A DNA stretch of 40,797 nucleotides from a virus (Duplodnaviria > Caudoviricetes): positions 1 through 40,797 of the IMG/VR virus record IMGVR_UViG_3300020042_003562. The stretch is one strand, 5' to 3'. How positions within the stretch are numbered: the stretch's first letter is position 1; every line of letters begins with the position of its first letter. Below are positions 2,687-34,159 of the stretch, piece by piece. A program made the translations under genes and the position numbers. A model generated the notes under the pieces. It saw only the letters and a list, made by a program, of their open reading frames with translations, searched no databases and was not told where the DNA came from.

Positions 2687-4504
2687 ATGGCTGACATTCA
2701 GCAAATCGCTGCGCGTGTCAAGCAACTGCGCGATAAGGCGCGGGAACGGGACTCTCGTTGGGCTGACGTACTTGAGGTACGTAAGGGAAACATTAACAAA
2801 GTGTTCCCTGGTTTATTCCCAGATGATTACCCGAAGCCTATGGTTGCAAACTTTATTGACATTGCAGCACGCGACGTATCTGAAGTTATAGCCCCGCTTC
2901 CAGCGTTTAACTGCTCGGCAACCAACTCAGTATCAGACCGCGCACGTCAGAAGGCTGACAAGCGTACAATGATCGCTGCAGGTTACCGTGACCAGTCACG
3001 CCTACAGACTCAGATGTTTACAGGTGCAGATCGCTACGTAACCTTTGGCGTATTGCCAATACTTGTAGAGATTGACTACGAACGTAAGACCCCTGTTATT
3101 AACATTGATGATCCTATCGGATCATACCCAGATTTTGACCGCTTTGGTCGTCTAGTTTCCTACACTAAGCGCTACACTAAGACCGTAGCTGACCTAGTGC
3201 GTGAGTTCCCAGAGCATGAGTCCGTTATTCGTGGCCGTATGGGTACCACAAATGATGAAACTCGTTTGGACATGTATCGTTACCACGATAAAAATGCAAC
3301 TATCTTGTTCTTATCGGAGCGCAACAACTTTGTTCTAGCTCAGACCCCTAATCCTATAGGCGAGATTATGGCTGTTATGGCCGTACGCCCAGGTATTGAC
3401 TCAGATACAGAGTTCCGTGGTCAGTTCGATGACATTCTATGGGTCCAGGTGGCGCGTTCGCGCTTCGCTACCCTAAGCCTTGAAGCTGCACAGAAATCTG
3501 TACAAGCACCGTACGCATTGCCAGCAGATGTAAACGTAATGGAGATTGGCCCTGATGCCACCATCCGTTCGGCTTCTCCAGAGAAGATTCGTCGTGTAGA
3601 TCTTAATGTTCCTCCTGGTTTGTTCCAGGAATCAGCAGCATTAGACCAAGAATTGCGTGTTGGCGGACGTTACCCAGAGGGTCGCCTAGGCAACATGTCT
3701 GGATCTATTGTTACAGGCCGTGGCGTTGAAGCCCTTATGGGTGGATTTGACACTCAGGTCAAGACAGCACAGACCGTATTTGCCCAAGCATTAACTGAGG
3801 TTATGTCACTTTGCTTTGAAGTTGACGAAAAGATCTTTAAGAACGTACGCAAGACCGTACGTGGCATGGATGCAGGCGCACCATTTGAGGTAGAATACAC
3901 CCCATCTAAGGACATTGCAGGCGAATACGTAGTAGATGTTACCTACGGTTTGATGGCTGGCCTTAACCCTAACCAAGCTTTAGTCTTTGGTTTGCAGGCA
4001 CGTGGAGATCAGTTGATCTCACGCGACTTTTTACGTCGTCAGATGCCATGGGAAATCAACGTAACCATGGAAGAACAGAAGATCGAAGTAGAAAAAATGC
4101 GTGATTCGCTACTCGCTGCGGTATCTGGTTTAGCCCAATCGTTACCAGCCCTAGTACAAAGCGGGCAGGATCCTTCACAGTTTATTGGAAAACTAGCAGC
4201 AATCATTGATGGTCGCCTAAAGGGTGAATCTATTGAATCAATCGTAGCTGAAGTTTTCGCACCTGAGCCACCACCGTCCGCACCTGGATCGCAGCCTGCA
4301 GTCCCTGGCTCTCCAGAAGAAGCGGCCGCTGCGGGCGGTGGTGTTTCTGGACTTAATCCACTGACGGGTTCACCTACTGGTGTAGCCCCTGGTCAGGTAG
4401 GGGTAGGCGGAAAGCCTCCAATTCAATATCTCCTTGCTGGTCTAAACAGTAGGGGAAAACCAACACTAGCTTCTAGTGTTACAAGAATGATGCCAGCAGG
4501 ATAA
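2687..4504 (+). CDS. Portal (head-tail connector) protein
   Basis: 605 aa directly after terminase; helical portal-like composition with Pro/Gly-rich C-terminus; synteny. Confidence 0.85.
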   Translation: MADIQQIAARVKQLRDKARERDSRWADVLEVRKGNINKVFPGLFPDDYPKPMVANFIDIAARDVSEVIAPLPAFNCSATNSVSDRARQKADKRTMIAAGYRDQSRLQTQMFTGADRYVTFGVLPILVEIDYERKTPVINIDDPIGSYPDFDRFGRLVSYTKRYTKTVADLVREFPEHESVIRGRMGTTNDETRLDMYRYHDKNATILFLSERNNFVLAQTPNPIGEIMAVMAVRPGIDSDTEFRGQFDDILWVQVARSRFATLSLEAAQKSVQAPYALPADVNVMEIGPDATIRSASPEKIRRVDLNVPPGLFQESAALDQELRVGGRYPEGRLGNMSGSIVTGRGVEALMGGFDTQVKTAQTVFAQALTEVMSLCFEVDEKIFKNVRKTVRGMDAGAPFEVEYTPSKDIAGEYVVDVTYGLMAGLNPNQALVFGLQARGDQLISRDFLRRQMPWEINVTMEEQKIEVEKMRDSLLAAVSGLAQSLPALVQSGQDPSQFIGKLAAIIDGRLKGESIESIVAEVFAPEPPPSAPGSQPAVPGSPEEAAAAGGGVSGLNPLTGSPTGVAPGQVGVGGKPPIQYLLAGLNSRGKPTLASSVTRMMPAG

Positions 4505-11457: not shown

Positions 11458-12434
11458 TGGCAACACAACCAGGTGCCGCATGGGTAAAGAATAGCAAGGG
11501 TAAGTGGGTTAAGCCAAAGGCTCCTGCTACTGGCGGTCCATACGAATGGAACGATACTAGCGGTTGGGTAAAAGTAAAGACTGCCTCAGACTTTGCAGCA
11601 GAATACGGAACTCAAGCTGCCCTAGTTAACAGCAACCCAGAACTCCAAAGTTTGTTTAACCAAGCAGTTGCAGAGCAATGGTCTCCAGCCAAGTTCAAGG
11701 CTACCTTTGAAAACACAAACTGGTTTAAGTCTAACGGACCAACATGGCGTATGGCAGAAACTGCACGCCTATCTGATCCTGGTTCCTGGAACGCTTCTCT
11801 AACTGAAATCAAGGCAAAGATCCAGCAAACCTCACGGGACATGGGATTTGAATTAAACCCTGCCGATGTTGACAAACTTGCTAACGACACACTTTACCTA
11901 TCATGGGGTAAGGGTGTAGATGATTCTATGCTTAAGCAACATGTTGCTGCTACGGGCCGTATCACTGGCACTGGTGGCGAAGTTGCTACCACCATGCAGA
12001 AACTTAAAGAACAAGCTGGTAGCATGGGTGTACAATATGCTGACGACTGGTTTGCCAATGCAGCACAAAGCACACTGGCTGGTCAGTCTAACATTGACTA
12101 CTACAACCAGAAAATTAGAGATGATGCCAAAAGTAAATATGCAGCCTTTGCTGACCAAATTGATGCTGGTCAAACAGTTGCCGCCATTGCTTCGCCGTAT
12201 GTACAAAGTATGGCACGAATCTTAGAGTTACCTTCGACAGACATTGACTTAAACGATCCAACCATCTCACAGGCTTTGCAGGGATTTGATGCACAAAACA
12301 AGCCAGTTGCTAAACCAGTTTGGGAATTTGAACGTGAGCTAAAGCAAGATGATCGCTATTTCAAGACCAACACTGCAGTTAGAGACATGACTGGTTTGGC
12401 TTCTGAAATTGCCCGACAGTTTGGAAAGATGTAA
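11457..12434 (+). CDS. Hypothetical virion protein (putative internal protein)
   Basis: 325 aa; TAATG coupling; function unknown. Confidence 0.7.
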   Translation: MATQPGAAWVKNSKGKWVKPKAPATGGPYEWNDTSGWVKVKTASDFAAEYGTQAALVNSNPELQSLFNQAVAEQWSPAKFKATFENTNWFKSNGPTWRMAETARLSDPGSWNASLTEIKAKIQQTSRDMGFELNPADVDKLANDTLYLSWGKGVDDSMLKQHVAATGRITGTGGEVATTMQKLKEQAGSMGVQYADDWFANAAQSTLAGQSNIDYYNQKIRDDAKSKYAAFADQIDAGQTVAAIASPYVQSMARILELPSTDIDLNDPTISQALQGFDAQNKPVAKPVWEFERELKQDDRYFKTNTAVRDMTGLASEIARQFGKM

Positions 12435-13282
12435 TGGCTGAACCAGTAGTACCACCTATGGATGCCCGCGATGTATTTACTCGCACTCTTAAAGACCTTG
12501 GGTTTAGCGACGCACAGATCAATGAACTGCTACCGCAAGTTACTCAATGGCAATCGGTTTACACACCAACCCAGATCGTTACCGACTTGCTACCTACCAC
12601 AACTGTTTACCAGCAAAGATTTTCTGCTAATGAAACTCGCGTAAAGAATGGCTTAAAGCCACTTAGCCCAAGTGAGTACCTGTCTCTTGAAACAGCCTAC
12701 CGAGCCACACTTAAAGACGCTGGACTTCCTGCAGGTTTTTATGATAGCCCAGATGATTTTGCTGGATTCATCGGCCAGGACACATCTGCTGCTGAGATTA
12801 AACTACGTGCAGATGCAGCAGCTCGCGCTGTAAACAATACAGATCCTGCATACACACAAGCACTTAGGGATATATACGGAATAGATGAAGGCATGATGGC
12901 CGCGTTTATGTTAGACGCAGAACGTGCCCGACCTCTAATTGAAAAGCAAGCCAAGGCTGTTGAGTTTGGAACTGCCGCTGTTAGACAGGGTTTGCAAGCT
13001 ACCAGAGTTGGCGAACAATTTGCACAACGTGGACCTGCTACTGGTTACACTGCAGATCAAGGCTACAGCGCTATTGCTGGGATGCTACCAACCGCTTCAA
13101 AACTTGGTCAGGTCTATGGTCAAACTTACGACCAGGCAACGGCAGAGCAAGAGGTCTTCTCTGGTCTTGAGTCTGCAAAGCGCAAGCGTCAGAAACTTGG
13201 ACAGATGGAAACAGCAACTTTTAGTGGACAGTCTGGCGTAGCCGCTGGTTCATTGAAGGCAAGCAAGTCGGGACAGTTTTAG
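12434..13282 (+). CDS. Hypothetical virion protein (putative internal protein)
   Basis: 282 aa; TAATG coupling; function unknown. Confidence 0.7.
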   Translation: MAEPVVPPMDARDVFTRTLKDLGFSDAQINELLPQVTQWQSVYTPTQIVTDLLPTTTVYQQRFSANETRVKNGLKPLSPSEYLSLETAYRATLKDAGLPAGFYDSPDDFAGFIGQDTSAAEIKLRADAAARAVNNTDPAYTQALRDIYGIDEGMMAAFMLDAERARPLIEKQAKAVEFGTAAVRQGLQATRVGEQFAQRGPATGYTADQGYSAIAGMLPTASKLGQVYGQTYDQATAEQEVFSGLESAKRKRQKLGQMETATFSGQSGVAAGSLKASKSGQF

Positions 13283-13288
13283 TCCCAA

Positions 13289-13365
13289 GGGTGTGAAAGG
13301 TTAGACCGAATCTAAATCCGCATGACGGACAGATACGGGACGCGGTTCGATTCCGCACACATCCA
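13289..13365 (+). ncRNA. Miniature tmRNA-like RNA (tRNA-like domain with Ala identity; mRNA domain reduced to a hairpin)
   Basis: Acceptor stem GGGTGTG/CACATCC with G3:U70 and A73; stemless D-loop AAAGGTTAGA; helix CCGAATCT/AGATACGG; GAC linker; T-arm GCGG-TTCGATT-CCGC; no encoded CCA. Confidence 0.8.
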
Positions 13366-13368
13366 CTC

Positions 13369-13458
13369 CGCACGGATCGGTCGGCCCATGTGCGTGTAAA
13401 TAAGCCCGATAGTGAAAGCCAACACAGGTTCCCCTGCTTGTGTTGTGGTTCGCGACTA
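13369..13458 (+). other. Structured leader upstream of scaffold/capsid genes (putative pseudoknot plus long hairpin)
   Basis: CGCAC/GTGCG stem whose loop (ATCGG or GTCGG) can pair with downstream CCGAT; AACACA/TGTGTT stem within AGCC/GGTT, with a TTCCCC loop. Confidence 0.45.
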
Positions 13459-13487
13459 ACCTAAAAAAACGAAAGGGAGTGGCTGCT

Positions 13488-13949
13488 ATGGCCAACCAGT
13501 ACAACGATTACGATGACGACGACGACTTCGATACCGAAGAAGAAAGCGGTCCTGCAAACCTTCGCAAGGCTTTGAAAAAAGCTGAACGTGAAGCAAAGCA
13601 ACTCCGAGATGAACTTACTTCTTTGCGATCAGAATCGCGTTCACGAACCGTAAAGGACGTTCTGGAAACCAAGGGTGTTAATCCAAAGATTGCTGCGTTC
13701 ATTCCAGCAGATGCGGATACACCTGAAAAGGTTGCTCTATGGCTTGACGAATACTCAGATGTATTTGGGTATCAATCAAATGGGCAATCAGACGACATTG
13801 TGGCTCCAGAATCGGCTCGCCGTATTCAGGAATCCACTTCAACTGCTACAGGCGCAGGTCGTGACGAGGACTTAGCTTCTCGTCTAGCCGCTACCAACAG
13901 CAGAGAAGAGCTGGATCAACTGATCTTTGGTATGTCCACAGGTCGTTAA
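13488..13949 (+). CDS. Capsid scaffolding protein
   Basis: Acidic N-terminus then coiled coil (LRKALKKAEREAKQLRDEL); immediately before capsid gene; SD AAAGGGAG favours ATG 13488 over the track start. Confidence 0.8.
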   Translation: MANQYNDYDDDDDFDTEEESGPANLRKALKKAEREAKQLRDELTSLRSESRSRTVKDVLETKGVNPKIAAFIPADADTPEKVALWLDEYSDVFGYQSNGQSDDIVAPESARRIQESTSTATGAGRDEDLASRLAATNSREELDQLIFGMSTGR

Positions 13950-13990
13950 CAGCAACTACAACAACCCCTAATTCCCAAGGAGGGAAATAA

Positions 13991-14950
13991 ATGCCTAACG
14001 CATTTACAGACACAGGCACGGGTTCGCTTGGTACCAATCTGGTCCAAGCCGCCTATGACCGTTATGTTGAGTTTGCACTTCGCGCAATCCCATTGATTCG
14101 CGACGTTGCAGACAAGCGCCCAGCGCAACAGGCAATGCCAGGTTCCTCAGTCGTGTTCCAGCTTTACAGCGACATGGCTAAGGCTACTACAGCATTGACT
14201 GAAACCACAGATCCAGATGCAGTTGCTCTTGGCAACACCACATCTGTATCCGTAACACTGAACGAATACGGCAACGCAGCCCTTGCAACTCGCAAATTGG
14301 AACTGTTCTCGCTGTCCGATGTTGATCCAGCTATTGCTAACATCATCGCGTTCAACATGGCTGATTCCCTAGATGAACTGGCTCTTACCGAACTACGCGG
14401 TGGAAGCAACGTAATCTACTCAGCTAACTCAACTGGCACTGCCGCAACTGGCACTGCTTACATTGGTGCAACAAACACCCTTAAGTCCGCTGATGTTCGT
14501 AAGGCAGTAGCCAAGCTTCGTGCTGGCAAGGCTGTCCCACGTACAGGCGAACTATACTGGTGTGGTATCCACCCTGAAGTTTCACACGATCTTCGTGCTG
14601 AGACTGGTGCAGGTGGCTGGCGTGAGGCTCACGTCTACAACGAATCTGGCGCAGGAAACTTGTGGCCAGGAAGCATTGGTACCTACGAAGGTGCAATGTT
14701 CGTTGAATCACCACGTCTATACAACGCAACCGATGGCGCAACAAGCACTCGCGTGTTCCGCACCATCGTTGCAGGTCAGCAAGCACTTGCAGAAGCAGTT
14801 GCAGAAGAGCCACATGTAATCATTGGCCCAGTTGTTGACAAGTTGATGCGCTTCCGTCCAATCGGATGGTACGGCGTACTTGGCTGGAAGCGTTACCGTG
14901 AAGCTGCGCTTTACCGTATCGAATCCACCTCAAGCATCAACAACGTCTAA
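13991..14950 (+). CDS. Major capsid protein (N4-gp56-like family)
   Basis: 319 aa; VTLNEYG, IHPEVSHDL, GSIGTYEG and DKLMRFRPIGWY motifs resemble this family; strong SD AAGGAGG; follows scaffold. Confidence 0.9.
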   Translation: MPNAFTDTGTGSLGTNLVQAAYDRYVEFALRAIPLIRDVADKRPAQQAMPGSSVVFQLYSDMAKATTALTETTDPDAVALGNTTSVSVTLNEYGNAALATRKLELFSLSDVDPAIANIIAFNMADSLDELALTELRGGSNVIYSANSTGTAATGTAYIGATNTLKSADVRKAVAKLRAGKAVPRTGELYWCGIHPEVSHDLRAETGAGGWREAHVYNESGAGNLWPGSIGTYEGAMFVESPRLYNATDGATSTRVFRTIVAGQQALAEAVAEEPHVIIGPVVDKLMRFRPIGWYGVLGWKRYREAALYRIESTSSINNV

Positions 14951-21493: not shown

Positions 21494-21509
21494 TGATACA
21501 ATCTGGGCA
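21494..21509 (+). promoter_or_regulatory. Putative extended -10 leaderless promoter for the glycosyltransferase
   Basis: TG-A-TACAAT, then 6 nt, then ATG at 21509; no SD. Confidence 0.6.
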
Positions 21510-22576
21510 TGGTAAAGATAGCAGTGTACGCCATTGCCCTCAATGAGGCAAAGCACGTAGCTCGCTGGGCCAAGGCCACAGCGGGTGCTGATGTAAGAAT
21601 TGTAGCAGATACTGGGTCAACTGACAACACAGTACAACTGCTCAACCAATACCGCATAGAGACCTACGAGATCAACGTAAGCCCTTTTCGCTTTGATGAT
21701 GCCCGTAATGCAGCCCTAGCCTTAGTGCCTGCTGACGTGGATGTGTGTGTCTCCTTGGACATGGACGAGATTCCAGATCCAGACTTCTTCGACAAGATCA
21801 AAGATGCTTGGGTTCCAGGCACGGAACGTGCATGGGTTGCATGGGACACTGGCCAGCAATGGATGAACAATAACAGGATCCATGCTAGGCATGGGTACCG
21901 TTGGGTTAAACCATGTCACGAAGTGACAGTGGCCTATCCACCACGGCAAGAGCAAGATGTGGTCATAGAAACTATGGTCTACCACAAGCCAGATGACAGT
22001 AAGCCAAGGTCACAATACCTGACATTACTGCAAATGGGAGCTGCTGAGGATCCATCAGATTCCCGCATTAGATTTTACCTTATCCGAGAATACTACTTTC
22101 ACAAGCAATGGGAGAACGCAGTCCATGAAACAGAGCGACTCTTCTCTGACAAGCGAGTGGAAGGTGGCTGGCCTGTTGAGCTTGCTGCCGCTTGTCGCGG
22201 TGCTGGCGATAGTCTTGTCGAACTAGGTAAGCCAGAACGGGCAATAGGTTGGTTCCTCAAGGGAACTGAACTAGCCCCAGACCAGATGGAAGCATGGTTT
22301 GCTTTAGCCCACTTCCTGTATACACAGCAGCGCTGGCAAGAATGTTTTGATGCGGCTAATAAAGTAAACGAACTTGAGATGGGTAGTCACTATCTGATTG
22401 ACAGTTCAATCTACAAGTGGCGAGCATACGATCTTTTGGCCATCGCTTCCTGGAACCTAGGTAAAAAGGGTTCGGCTAAAAAATGGGCAAGACTGGCGGT
22501 AGAGGGAAACCCTACAGACAAACGCCTTATTGACAATTACCAATTCATGCTGAAGGGACAAACTAATGGCATGTAG
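21509..22576 (+). CDS. Family 2 glycosyltransferase with C-terminal TPR-like repeats
   Basis: IAVYAIALNE, ADTGSTDNT, FDDARNAAL, DxD motif SLDMDE; helical TPR-like C-terminal half. Confidence 0.9.
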   Translation: MVKIAVYAIALNEAKHVARWAKATAGADVRIVADTGSTDNTVQLLNQYRIETYEINVSPFRFDDARNAALALVPADVDVCVSLDMDEIPDPDFFDKIKDAWVPGTERAWVAWDTGQQWMNNNRIHARHGYRWVKPCHEVTVAYPPRQEQDVVIETMVYHKPDDSKPRSQYLTLLQMGAAEDPSDSRIRFYLIREYYFHKQWENAVHETERLFSDKRVEGGWPVELAAACRGAGDSLVELGKPERAIGWFLKGTELAPDQMEAWFALAHFLYTQQRWQECFDAANKVNELEMGSHYLIDSSIYKWRAYDLLAIASWNLGKKGSAKKWARLAVEGNPTDKRLIDNYQFMLKGQTNGM

Positions 22577-29247: not shown

Positions 29248-29341
29248 TGCTTCTCTTTTCTGTTAAGTAGGTAAGGGGTTTACCAAACATGGCCCTGTTG
29301 GGTGGTGTAACCACCCTACCTGTTTACTCGCTGTCGCTCGT

Positions 29342-29372
29342 ATTATACTCACACCTTCAAGGAACCTGTCAA
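29342..29372 (-). promoter_or_regulatory. Leftward sigma70/sigmaA-like promoter, TTGACA-N19-TATAAT
   Basis: Perfect hexamers on - strand (-35 at 29367-29372, -10 at 29342-29347); spacer is long. Confidence 0.6.
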
Positions 29373-29394
29373 ATCACGGCGTTACCAAGCTCGT

Positions 29395-29430
29395 TTGCAT
29401 TGTGTACTGAGTGGGTGTACAGTGTGCGTA
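29395..29430 (+). promoter_or_regulatory. Rightward leaderless promoter TTGCAT-N17-TACAGT-N6-ATG for the replication operon
   Basis: Canonical spacing; predicted transcription start coincides with ATG 29430. Confidence 0.7.
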
Positions 29431-29624
29431 TGGGAATAATAAAAGAAACAACGATAGGGCATAGATCCTTCTCGTCATTTACATCCTGGGTCAAGTGCGG
29501 TAAGTCATGGCAACTTGAACGGGAGCTAAAGGTACCCACTGATACAGCGTGGTACTTCGTCGGAGGTTCAGCCTTCCACCTAGCAGTAGAGCGTTACCTC
29601 AAGGGGGAACTACCTGATGCTTAA
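29430..29624 (+). CDS. N-terminal piece of split Cas4/RecB-like PD-(D/E)xK nuclease
   Basis: SFSSFTSWVKCG...GSAFHLAVE matches the family N-terminus, including the first Cys. Confidence 0.8.
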   Translation: MGIIKETTIGHRSFSSFTSWVKCGKSWQLERELKVPTDTAWYFVGGSAFHLAVERYLKGELPDA

Positions 29625-30300
29625 CATCAAACTATTGTGGGAGCAAGCTTTCAATGAAAGCATTGGTGCCGAGCAAGAGAAGTATGGTACTAACCCTGTT
29701 GATTGGAAGGCATCTGGTAGAACCAGCAAGGCTTGGCCTAACAAAGAAAACGGTGACTGGTGGGCTGAGAAGGGACCAGAGATGGTCGGTAACTTCATTG
29801 ACTTCTGGGAACAGTCAGGCTGGCAGGTATGGGAAACACCTGAAGGTATCAAGGCCATCGAACTACAGCTCAACATTGACTACGGTGACGTACGCATCAA
29901 GGCTTTCGTTGACCTTGTTGCTGTCACCCCTGATGGTGAACTTGTAGTCATTGACTTTAAGACTGGTGCCAATATGCCAACCAATGCAATGCAGCTAGCG
30001 CTGTATGCCTGCAGTATCGAGAAGCAGTTTGGCATACGCCCAAGTCAGGGTTACTATTACGACGCACGTAATGTCATGTTGCTACCAGCCGAAGGCTTTA
30101 ACAACTGGACATACCCACTGTTTACTGAACTGTTTAGGCAGTTTGAGTTTGCAGTAGAGAACAAAATATTTCTACCAAACTTGAGCATGATGTGTAGCTA
30201 CTGCTCAGTGAAAGACTTTTGCTACGCCTACGGTGGAGACTTTAAGGATGCCGTAGATCCATTAGCACTAATCGCACACCCGAAGGAAACAAATGTTTAA
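29617..30300 (+). CDS. Catalytic piece of Cas4/RecB-like PD-(D/E)xK exonuclease
   Basis: FVDLV...VIDFKTG, QLALY and C-terminal CSYCSVKDFC; own SD AAGGGGGA. Confidence 0.88.
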   Translation: MLNIKLLWEQAFNESIGAEQEKYGTNPVDWKASGRTSKAWPNKENGDWWAEKGPEMVGNFIDFWEQSGWQVWETPEGIKAIELQLNIDYGDVRIKAFVDLVAVTPDGELVVIDFKTGANMPTNAMQLALYACSIEKQFGIRPSQGYYYDARNVMLLPAEGFNNWTYPLFTELFRQFEFAVENKIFLPNLSMMCSYCSVKDFCYAYGGDFKDAVDPLALIAHPKETNV

Positions 30301-32440: not shown

Positions 32441-32616
32441 ATAAGAAACAATGGAATGAACGTGCCGATTGGGTACAATACGGCATAGGTAAAGGCTGGG
32501 TAACAGATAGTATCTGCGCTACCCATGATGGAACTTATGATTACGCAACTGATGAAGAGCGTGAGCAATGGGATGAGGGTGGAGATCCATGCGACCTGGT
32601 GCTCAAGCTACTATGA
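32437..32616 (+). CDS. Hypothetical protein (59 aa)
   Basis: GTGA overlap start; W...G...GW...CATHDG...GGDPC. Confidence 0.65.
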   Translation: MNKKQWNERADWVQYGIGKGWVTDSICATHDGTYDYATDEEREQWDEGGDPCDLVLKLL

Positions 32617-32975
32617 CCGACAAGCCTGACCTTGCTACGGTACTGGAGCACTACGGTGCAACGATACCTAACAAGTATGGCTACATCTCAATGCGGTGTG
32701 TACTGCATGAGGACACGCACTCAAGTGCAACAGTAAACATAGACAAGCAACGATACCATTGTTTTGTTTGCCAGTTTGATGGCGATGTGTATGATGTGGT
32801 ATCTAAAAAGGAAGAGATAGGTTTTAAGGATGCTGTCACAAGAGCAGAAGCTATTGCTAACGGAAACCGCAGAGAAGTACGTCAGCACACTGGATCAAGC
32901 AACGGCCTCTTACCTGCTAGGGCGAGGAATAACAAAGGAAGCCGCAGGTACGTTCCGCCTAGGTACAGTAAATGA
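32613..32975 (+). CDS. Primase zinc-binding (CHC2) domain ORF
   Basis: CVLHED...HCFVC...GD. Confidence 0.85.
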   Translation: MTDKPDLATVLEHYGATIPNKYGYISMRCVLHEDTHSSATVNIDKQRYHCFVCQFDGDVYDVVSKKEEIGFKDAVTRAEAIANGNRREVRQHTGSSNGLLPARARNNKGSRRYVPPRYSK

Positions 32976-33465
32976 TCCTGCGCCTGGCCATGAGCACGCT
33001 GTTGGGTGTCTTAGTATTCCTTATCGCACTCCCACTGGTATTGTTGGTATTAAGTTTCGTAAGGTTGATGGAGGTTCTCCTAAGTATCTGTGGCCGACTG
33101 GTCAAAAGGTTGGGATGTATAACGTCATTGACTTGCATGAAAGCTCAGATGTTATTGCTATCTGCGAGGGTGAACTTGATACCTTGGTTATGTCTGCTCT
33201 TGTGGGTGTGCCTGCTGTGGGTATTGCTGGCGTGAGCCAGTGGAAGCCACACTTTCCTAAGATGTTTGAAGGCTTTGATCGTATCGTTATCTTTGCAGAC
33301 AATGACCTTAAGGAAGATGGCCGTAACCCTGGCATGGAGCTGGCCAAGCGCATCAAAGAAGATCTTGACAAGGCGGTAGTCATCTCACTACCTGAGAACA
33401 ATGACGTGAACCAGGTGTACCTAGATGGTGGCGAAGAATGGTTACGTGAAAGGGCGTTAGCATGA
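32830..33465 (+). CDS. Primase catalytic TOPRIM ORF
   Basis: YLLGRGI, IPY, KFR, ICEGELD, FADND and DVN motifs. Confidence 0.88.
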   Translation: MLSQEQKLLLTETAEKYVSTLDQATASYLLGRGITKEAAGTFRLGTVNDPAPGHEHAVGCLSIPYRTPTGIVGIKFRKVDGGSPKYLWPTGQKVGMYNVIDLHESSDVIAICEGELDTLVMSALVGVPAVGIAGVSQWKPHFPKMFEGFDRIVIFADNDLKEDGRNPGMELAKRIKEDLDKAVVISLPENNDVNQVYLDGGEEWLRERALA

Positions 33466-33641
33466 ACTACACAGAAAAGTATTTACTAGATCAAATCCAA
33501 CGTGTGCGTGACTTGCATACAAAAATTCCAGCAAGAAATTCTAGTAATAAATTTACCTGTAAAGAATGCTATGCGTTTTACACACACTACGAGTACGAAT
33601 ACCCTTGCCTTACTATTCAAGCATTAGACGGTGAAGTATGA
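33462..33641 (+). CDS. Small Cys/His protein (59 aa)
   Basis: Hand-translated RVRDLH...CKEC...YPCLTIQAL; ATGA overlaps at both ends. Confidence 0.7.
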   Translation: MNYTEKYLLDQIQRVRDLHTKIPARNSSNKFTCKECYAFYTHYEYEYPCLTIQALDGEV

Positions 33642-34159
33642 CGATCATAGTGGGCATAGCCCATGACGGTAAGGTCTACATGGCTGGTGACCGTGGTATG
33701 TCAGACAAAGACTTCATAGGTAGTATGGTTACACCCAAGATACACAAGGTTGGACCCATAATTATGGGTTACTCTGCATCTCAAGGTACAGGTCAGCTGG
33801 CTCACCTCATCACCTATCCCAAGCCAGTGTACGAGAACCTTGAAGCCTGGCTACGCATAGATTTCTGTGATGCCATACAAAAAGCAGCTGACCTATTCAA
33901 GATTGACATTAACTCCGAGGATAACGGTGCTGATTTTCTTGTTGGCATAGACGGCAGGCTATTTGAGATCAGTACCGAGGACTGGTCAGTAGCTGAGTAC
34001 GACATGATAGCCAATGGATCAGGCTACGCCTATGCCATGGGGTCATTGTTCAGTACCCGTGACTGGGATAGCCCCCGTAACCGTGTTAGGGAGGCTGTCA
34101 AGGCCTCTATTCGGTACTCCCCTACGTGCCAGGGGCCAGTAGACACTCTCGTTCTATGA
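33638..34159 (+). CDS. Ntn-hydrolase, HslV/proteasome beta-subunit-like
   Basis: N-terminal M-T-I-I-V-G, AGDR, Lys in TPKI, and ANGSG...AMG motif. Confidence 0.78.
   Translation: MTIIVGIAHDGKVYMAGDRGMSDKDFIGSMVTPKIHKVGPIIMGYSASQGTGQLAHLITYPKPVYENLEAWLRIDFCDAIQKAADLFKIDINSEDNGADFLVGIDGRLFEISTEDWSVAEYDMIANGSGYAYAMGSLFSTRDWDSPRNRVREAVKASIRYSPTCQGPVDTLVL

Follow-up and report, generated by a model that had tools for sequence, protein, structure and literature searches.

The window, by which we mean the whole 40,797-base stretch of DNA analysed here, is a viral record rated complete, and a PHROGs scan of its proteins revealed terminase, portal, major capsid, tail fibres, helicase, primase, a sigma factor and WhiB, with no integrase among the 53 proteins scanned. 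Its capsid protein shares ~56-58% identity with those of the listed Streptomyces phages, and this similarity, together with WhiB, makes an actinobacterial host likely. An SmpB gene was not found in the phage record (0/1) by a search that was positive in 10 of 14 controls, and blastn against 50,697 cultured phage records returned three short chance-level matches and nothing more.

On the + strand, a gene without an assigned function (phrog_8424; 12434..13282) ends with its stop 6 nt 5' of a message-less mini-tmRNA, consisting of the tRNA-like domain (TLD) only and measuring 77 nt up to the discriminator (13289..13365). This RNA is followed by the leader of a scaffold-like gene (13366..13487), the scaffold-like gene itself (phrog_7813, a family without an assigned function; 13488..13949), whose scaffold role is suggested by its place ahead of the capsid gene, and the gene for the major capsid protein (phrog_1357; 13991..14950). 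No sigma-70-type promoter was found in 12900-14100.

The window contains a single match to a TLD-shaped pattern, against none in 300 Markov-1 simulations of the window, and the fold of the RNA has a z-score of -2.56. The 7-bp acceptor stem (13289-13295/13358-13364) contains G3·U70, formed by G3 of the 5' strand (13289..13295; G3 at 13291) and U70 of the 3' strand (13358..13365; U70 at 13362), the latter ending in the discriminator A73 at 13365. CCA is not encoded, ACTC standing in its place. The stemless D loop (13296..13305) falls one base short of the Rfam consensus and carries A8, GG at 13299-13300 and then G16/A17, the counterparts of E. coli G19/A20. Helix 2a, an A-rich bulge and a small hairpin occupy 13306..13338, an interior of the type found in mycobacteriophage DS6A: helix 2a has 8 bp (13306-13313/13331-13338) with one A:A mismatch, and encloses 17 nt (13314-13330) in which the small hairpin, TCCG/CGGA around CATGA, spans 13317-13329. 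The connector GAC (13339..13341) corresponds to the connector in which A334 makes contact with SmpB, and E. coli G19 is also an SmpB contact as described in PMC8363625. The T arm (13342..13357) has four Watson-Crick pairs and a TTCGATT loop (13346-13352), with A13357 either unpaired or in a C·A mismatch. Every part listed in an earlier note on this DNA is present where it had been placed; what that note missed was that the interior is a hairpin, that the T stem has four pairs with a spare A, and that CCA is not encoded.

The Rfam tmRNA model RF00023 matches the element over model positions 1-374 (30.7 bits, E 2.3e-10), without reaching the gathering score of 47, and matches from the same clan scored lower. 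This score alone is not discriminating because ordinary tRNAs score as high on RF00023 (31-35 bits, an ordinary 76-nt tRNA reaching 34.8), and it was therefore dropped as proof of tmRNA identity; the anatomy decides. ARAGORN made no call in the window, and misses both this RNA and its close relatives. Hallmarks of a tRNA are missing, with A8 rather than U8, no D stem and no anticodon arm with a 7-nt loop; an ordinary tRNA using the inner hairpin as its anticodon arm was rejected, as U33, the D stem and an ARAGORN call are all lacking. Also missing are the standard tmRNA features of a pseudoknot domain and a tag reading frame with a resume codon. The acceptor sequence differs from those of the five full tmRNAs compared. 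An attP fragment of a tmRNA, left by an integrative element, was likewise rejected, since both gene ends are present and covarying and no integrase was found among the 53 proteins scanned.

Selection on the RNA and its alanine identity

Homologous loci were collected using the capsid protein (80 loci) and the upstream protein (80 loci) as anchors; these sets are redundant, and part of the loci do not cover the slot. The scan of these loci did not require G3·U70, and yielded 36 matches whose acceptor pairs perfectly and whose loop fits TTCRANY. Excluding L001-L003, which had been found by pattern, G3·U70 is present in 32 of 33 such matches, many from redundant loci, and the remaining one is a chance match. 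A degenerate pattern run on the viral collection recovered at least 119 stretches, with ~240 estimated. All viral loci taken together comprise 102 unique sequences of 63-89 nt, falling into 74 clusters at 85%. Across these clusters, pairs form in 220 of 222 acceptor cells and 293 of 296 T-stem cells at positions that the pattern left free, using many pair types. In an alignment of 81 sequences, 89.5% of cells are paired, as compared to 59.6% when shuffled and at most 55.2% when slid, in an alignment that was itself fitted to the RNA model. G1, G2, G3, G7 and U70 are largely set by the search pattern in this alignment, and their invariance there is no evidence.

A control pattern specifying G3:C70 returned 21 stretches (15 unique), as compared to ~240 for G3·U70. 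Eight of the 15 come from one family and two resemble ordinary tRNAs. G3·U70 is thus ~10x commoner than G3:C70, and alanine-less forms exist. A viral TLD-like family with G3:C70 (L283, L284, L287, L290, L291, L295, L296 and L300) has an AT-rich, poorly paired interior.

The positions expected to contact SmpB are also kept: the connector A is retained in 77 of 81 family members, and G is found at the fourth or fifth place after GG in 67 of 78. Between near-identical phages the connector N varies, with AC constant. A T stem of fewer than five pairs is seen in three of the 81 members. The window RNA and L013 are two of these, and in them the four pairs show covariation while the spare A stays in place. 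Taken together, these comparisons of sequence argue that the mini-tmRNA is a real RNA gene under selection, and that its alanine identity (G3·U70/A73) has been retained under selection across homologues. The proposal that this is the tRNA-like domain of a tmRNA rather than a tRNA is thereby borne out, by the anatomy and by selection on homologues.

A genome collection gave a mixed set of 93 stretches (85 unique). Look-alike cyanobacterial matches and other rows with 4-6 acceptor pairs were left out of the family count; a Calothrix match (L334) was rejected as a mini-tmRNA, being only the 3' part of an ordinary tmRNA. Poribacteria chromosomes carry a conserved TLD-only RNA of 82-85 nt (L342:3001-3086 in G004, and another 14 loci of Poribacteria type within L305-L396), besides a full 353-nt tmRNA in the single genome that was checked. 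DS6A-type mini-tmRNAs also occur in Actinomadura genomes, at sites separate from the full tmRNA, including a tandem pair (L355:2998-3079 and 3293-3374) and L379:2998-3078.

The interior hairpin and kinship with DS6A

The earlier note had read GCA-TGA (13320-13325, with A at -4) as a message reduced to alanine and stop. These six bases lie inside the small hairpin, with the G of GCA paired, and the stem of this hairpin covaries among RNAs of the DS6A subtype (CCG/CGG, CCT/AGG, CTC/GAG, CCA/TGG), which by a strict definition accounts for 18 of the 81 aligned RNAs. The commonest loops in the subtype are CACG, CTTG and CATG, which are stable tetraloop types, and the TGA of the window arises from one extra A in a loop of this sort. 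The aligned codon is GCN in 10 of the 18, and a stop follows in only two, the window RNA and L237; GCA-TGA is also found in near-identical phages, DS6A reads GCA-CGC, and L013 likewise has no stop there.

Over the whole family, GCN-stop occurs in 13 of 81 members at offsets from 5 to 29, as compared to 7.8±2.7 in dinucleotide shuffles (51/1000 reaching 13), and is no more frequent than CTN-stop (15) or ACN-stop (14). With A at -4 it is found in four members, as compared to 2.0 in shuffles (135/1000). An earlier mononucleotide shuffle test had given 13/74, reached in 22/1000 shuffles. There may be a slight excess of GCN-stop, without a fixed position; the conservation that an Ala-stop message would call for is not found. 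Furthermore, helix 2 of tmRNA is directed away from the ribosome, and it is a ring around the 30S beak that brings in the message, as described in PMC8363625. Since a message needs this large ring to reach its channel, 17 nt would be unable to make the path. The Ala-stop message was therefore rejected. GCATG as a leftover of tmRNA helix 2 was also considered; it is present in one of the five full tmRNAs compared.

The closest known RNA is that of DS6A (JN698994.1 28478-28560; tmRNA Website tmID 11587), classed as 'TLD only' in PMC4131195. Both RNAs are phage-encoded and ~80 nt long, with G3·U70/A73, a stemless D loop, a NAC connector and no encoded CCA, and the DS6A interior resembles that of the window RNA in its helix 2a, A-rich bulge (AAAA in DS6A) and CCG/CGG hairpin. 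Their Rfam scores are similar (30.7 bits for the window RNA, 34.7 for DS6A). The two differ in acceptor sequence, D loop (10 nt in the window, 13 in DS6A), T stem (four pairs versus five) and hairpin loop (CATGA versus CACG). Their locations also differ, the window RNA standing ahead of scaffold and capsid genes and that of DS6A ahead of a DNA polymerase III gene; in different phages, RNAs of the subtype adjoin replication, terminase, portal and capsid genes. This kind of RNA is thus already in print through DS6A, and barely studied. New here, on sequence grounds, are the four-pair T stem and the position in a slot where cultured relatives keep tRNAs.

A standard one-piece tmRNA (RF00023) shares both TLD ends, the alanine identity and the SmpB-contact positions with the window RNA, whilst its pseudoknot ring and tag frame are absent from the latter (353-393 nt in the five full tmRNAs versus 77 nt). 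CDS-less organellar tmRNAs, described in PMC11915505 from mitochondria and from Mallomonadaceae plastids (~65 bp), are likewise TLDs without a tag frame. These are apparently the organelle's own tmRNA, the mitochondrial form having a reported nucleus-encoded SmpB; in contrast, the window RNA is an additional copy carried by a phage, and the host tmRNA alongside which it would act is intact. Engineered TLD fragments (PDB 2CZJ and 4ABR, as described in PMC3985003 and PMC3968760) have helix 2a with a small closing loop and bind SmpB, whereas the window RNA is natural.

Our search of the openly accessible literature did not bring up any description of such RNAs as a widespread family in phages. 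The term 'mini-tmRNA' had no match, PMC10690425 names tmRNA in a reference only, and the supplement of PMC11915505 gave no match for phage entries.

The slot ahead of the scaffold-like gene

Within the anchored loci, the RNA model finds a mini-tmRNA in 9 of the 80 capsid-anchored and 24 of the 80 upstream-gene-anchored loci, down to ~28% protein identity, and many of the relatives listed have the leader alone, with no tRNA-like head. Where a head is present, it mostly ends directly at the leader. Cultured Streptomyces phages Abafar and Manuel carry 14 and 19 tRNAs in the stretch ahead of their scaffold-like gene. Close relatives hold, in the same slot and at the same spacing, non-alanine micro tRNA-shaped RNAs of ~45-55 nt that lack G3·U70 and consist of an acceptor, one hairpin and a T arm (L086:3357-3401, L429, L014:1833-1883, L102:3332-3376), with a compensatory acceptor change between L429 and L086. 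In L012 and L086-L088, whose upstream protein is 88% identical, the slot contains such an RNA of ~45 nt with A3:U70, and in L423 and L430 it contains another DS6A-type RNA. A row of tRNA-like and degenerate tRNA sequences fills the same slot at L107:3245-3480.

The conserved leader is a separate element, also present in relatives without the mini-tmRNA. It contains two crossing helices (13369-13373/13390-13394 and 13380-13384/13406-13410), a hairpin and the Shine-Dalgarno sequence GGGAG (13475-13479), with which its first bases are predicted to pair. The crossing, pseudoknot-like helices covary in 45 distinct pattern-matched relatives, the window copy having been placed by homology. These predictions make the leader a candidate translational control element of the capsid assembly genes. 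In nine loci searched against Rfam at E<=0.1, neither the leader nor the non-alanine elements gave a match, bar one tRNA.

Transcripts were compared using eight runs, all of assembled contigs, of which seven are RNA and one (X6) is probably DNA. Contig pieces 95-99% alike cover the leader and the scaffold gene. The upstream ends of the RNA contigs lie at 13375 (X3, X9), 13382 (X7), 13383 (X2, X5), 13406 (X1) and 13562 (X4), those at 13375 and 13382-13383 coming from separate river or freshwater studies. The loose end of X9 resembles a sequencing adapter, which would shift its true start to ~13379. The probably-DNA run continues across the slot, with 65 other letters replacing 71. These ends weakly suggest that a 5' boundary lies 10-18 nt past the discriminator, in strains that may or may not carry the mini-tmRNA, and could fit processing, a promoter with its transcription start, or reverse transcription halting at the pseudoknot. 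None of the listed contig pieces of the seven RNA runs spans 13289-13365; standard-library contigs lose small RNAs, so this is uninformative on expression.

Possible functions of the RNA

At the level of sequence, the fold, the alanine identity pair, the SmpB-contact positions and selection on all of these are established, as is the lack of a conserved reading frame. The explanation that we favour, with a probability of about 0.5, is that the window RNA is an alanine-charged, SmpB-bound competitor of host tmRNA that withholds degradation tags, the steps beyond sequence and structure being ones that we infer. Host RNase P and 3' nucleases would excise the RNA from the late transcript and CCA would be added, after which AlaRS would charge it and the charged RNA would bind EF-Tu and SmpB, none of the latter being phage-encoded. 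SmpB would be drawn away from host tmRNA, and the RNA itself would be able to enter non-stop ribosomes and accept the chain, with no degradation tag added. Overall, phage proteins on stalled ribosomes would be tagged and degraded less during late expression. This decoy or competitor role, one of those suggested in the earlier note, has by analogy a published precedent: a molecule like that of DS6A is a strong inhibitor of tmRNA whether or not it can be charged, and may act through titration of SmpB (Mao 2009, cited in both PMC4131195 and PMC11915505). In addition, PMC3968760 describes how stalled ribosomes are bound by a TLD fragment together with SmpB and EF-Tu. Because the cited inhibition is independent of charging, simple titration does not explain the kept G3·U70, and some ribosome-side role is implied. 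The four-pair T stem or the shortened D loop could weaken binding of EF-Tu or SmpB. Against competition stands the patchiness of the RNA, its slot being empty in close relatives or filled by an RNA without G3·U70.

Since the alanine identity is retained, nearly invariant, though titration does not need it, a productive tag-free rescue is kept alive, which we consider possible if on the unlikely side. Ala-RNA·SmpB would accept the stalled chain and eject the broken mRNA, and the ribosome would then be freed by drop-off and peptidyl-tRNA hydrolase or a back-up factor, or more copies would add alanines; rescue capacity would be added, not blocked. CDS-less tmRNAs are the sole form in some mitochondria and plastids as described in PMC11915505, and Poribacteria chromosomes retain the mini form, in one genome alongside a full tmRNA. 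However, the sole experimental precedent described in PMC4131195 and PMC11915505 is inhibition, and according to PMC4131195 it is normally a stop codon in the message of the tmRNA itself that allows release. The exchange of slot contents among relatives in turn keeps alive a role as a tRNA-shaped processing signal, at which host tRNA nucleases would cut the ends, thereby defining where the scaffold-capsid mRNA, with its pseudoknot leader, begins. Any head of tRNA shape would then serve, in agreement with the tRNA rows of the two Streptomyces phages and with the non-alanine RNAs and their one compensatory pair. The RNA contig starts at 13375 and 13382-13383, with the probably-DNA run continuing upstream, are a weak hint in the same direction that could equally reflect a transcription start or a reverse-transcription stop. 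We nevertheless judge this role unlikely, as most relatives have the leader without a head, the same subtype adjoins replication, terminase and portal genes elsewhere, and a cutting signal would need neither G3·U70 nor SmpB contacts. A combination of the two, rather unlikely in our estimate, would have host tRNA nucleases excise the RNA, setting the mRNA 5' end, and the charged, SmpB-bound RNA then cap or tail stalled chains with alanine without a message; if true, it would amount to a phage-borne, message-free ribosome rescue across hundreds of viral genomes, missed by annotation.

Defence nucleases that cut tRNAs exist, and the RNA might serve as a decoy substrate absorbing those aimed at tRNA or tmRNA, being small, stable, tRNA-shaped and exchangeable with other tRNA-shaped RNAs in a tRNA slot. 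Such nucleases mostly cut anticodon loops, which the window RNA lacks, and SmpB-specific features are retained, making this quite improbable. Far more doubtful is a minimal trans-translation template, from which the ribosome would read GCA-TGA and terminate. Two-residue Ala-Ala tags exist in some bacterial tmRNAs according to PMC11915505, GCA-TGA with its A at -4 persists in near-identical phages and in L237, and GCN-stop lies slightly above both kinds of shuffle, but DS6A and L013 read through, and the six bases belong to a covarying hairpin in an interior too short to span the message ring. Hardly credible is a decayed tmRNA or attP fragment without a function of its own: tmRNA genes are common integration sites as described in PMC11915505, and the element is patchy among relatives, but its ends are intact and covarying, its acceptor is unlike those of the five full tmRNAs compared and no integrase was found among the 53 proteins scanned.

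The papers found name one phage RNA of this form, DS6A, as an oddity, and a single narrow pattern leads to an estimated ~240 viral stretches. This number, together with the failure of ARAGORN to call the window RNA and its close relatives, suggests that interference of phages with trans-translation is a common, unstudied trait. A natural comparison is offered by the slot in near-identical phages, which in some holds the alanine-marked RNA, in others a tRNA-shaped RNA of non-alanine type and in others nothing; this makes an SmpB sink, tag-free rescue and a processing signal testable using transcripts of 50-80 nt.

Three further observations concern other parts of the phage genome. The exonuclease (29289-30300) and primase (32589-33465) each show up as a pair of overlapping ORFs that correspond to consecutive parts of a single PHROG, which may reflect a frameshift, a split gene or an assembly error. 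A glycosyltransferase gene (21509-22576) lies inside the tail-fibre region. Finally, an HslV-family peptidase gene is located at 33638-34159, and may deserve attention in a phage whose mini-tmRNA possibly affects protein quality control.
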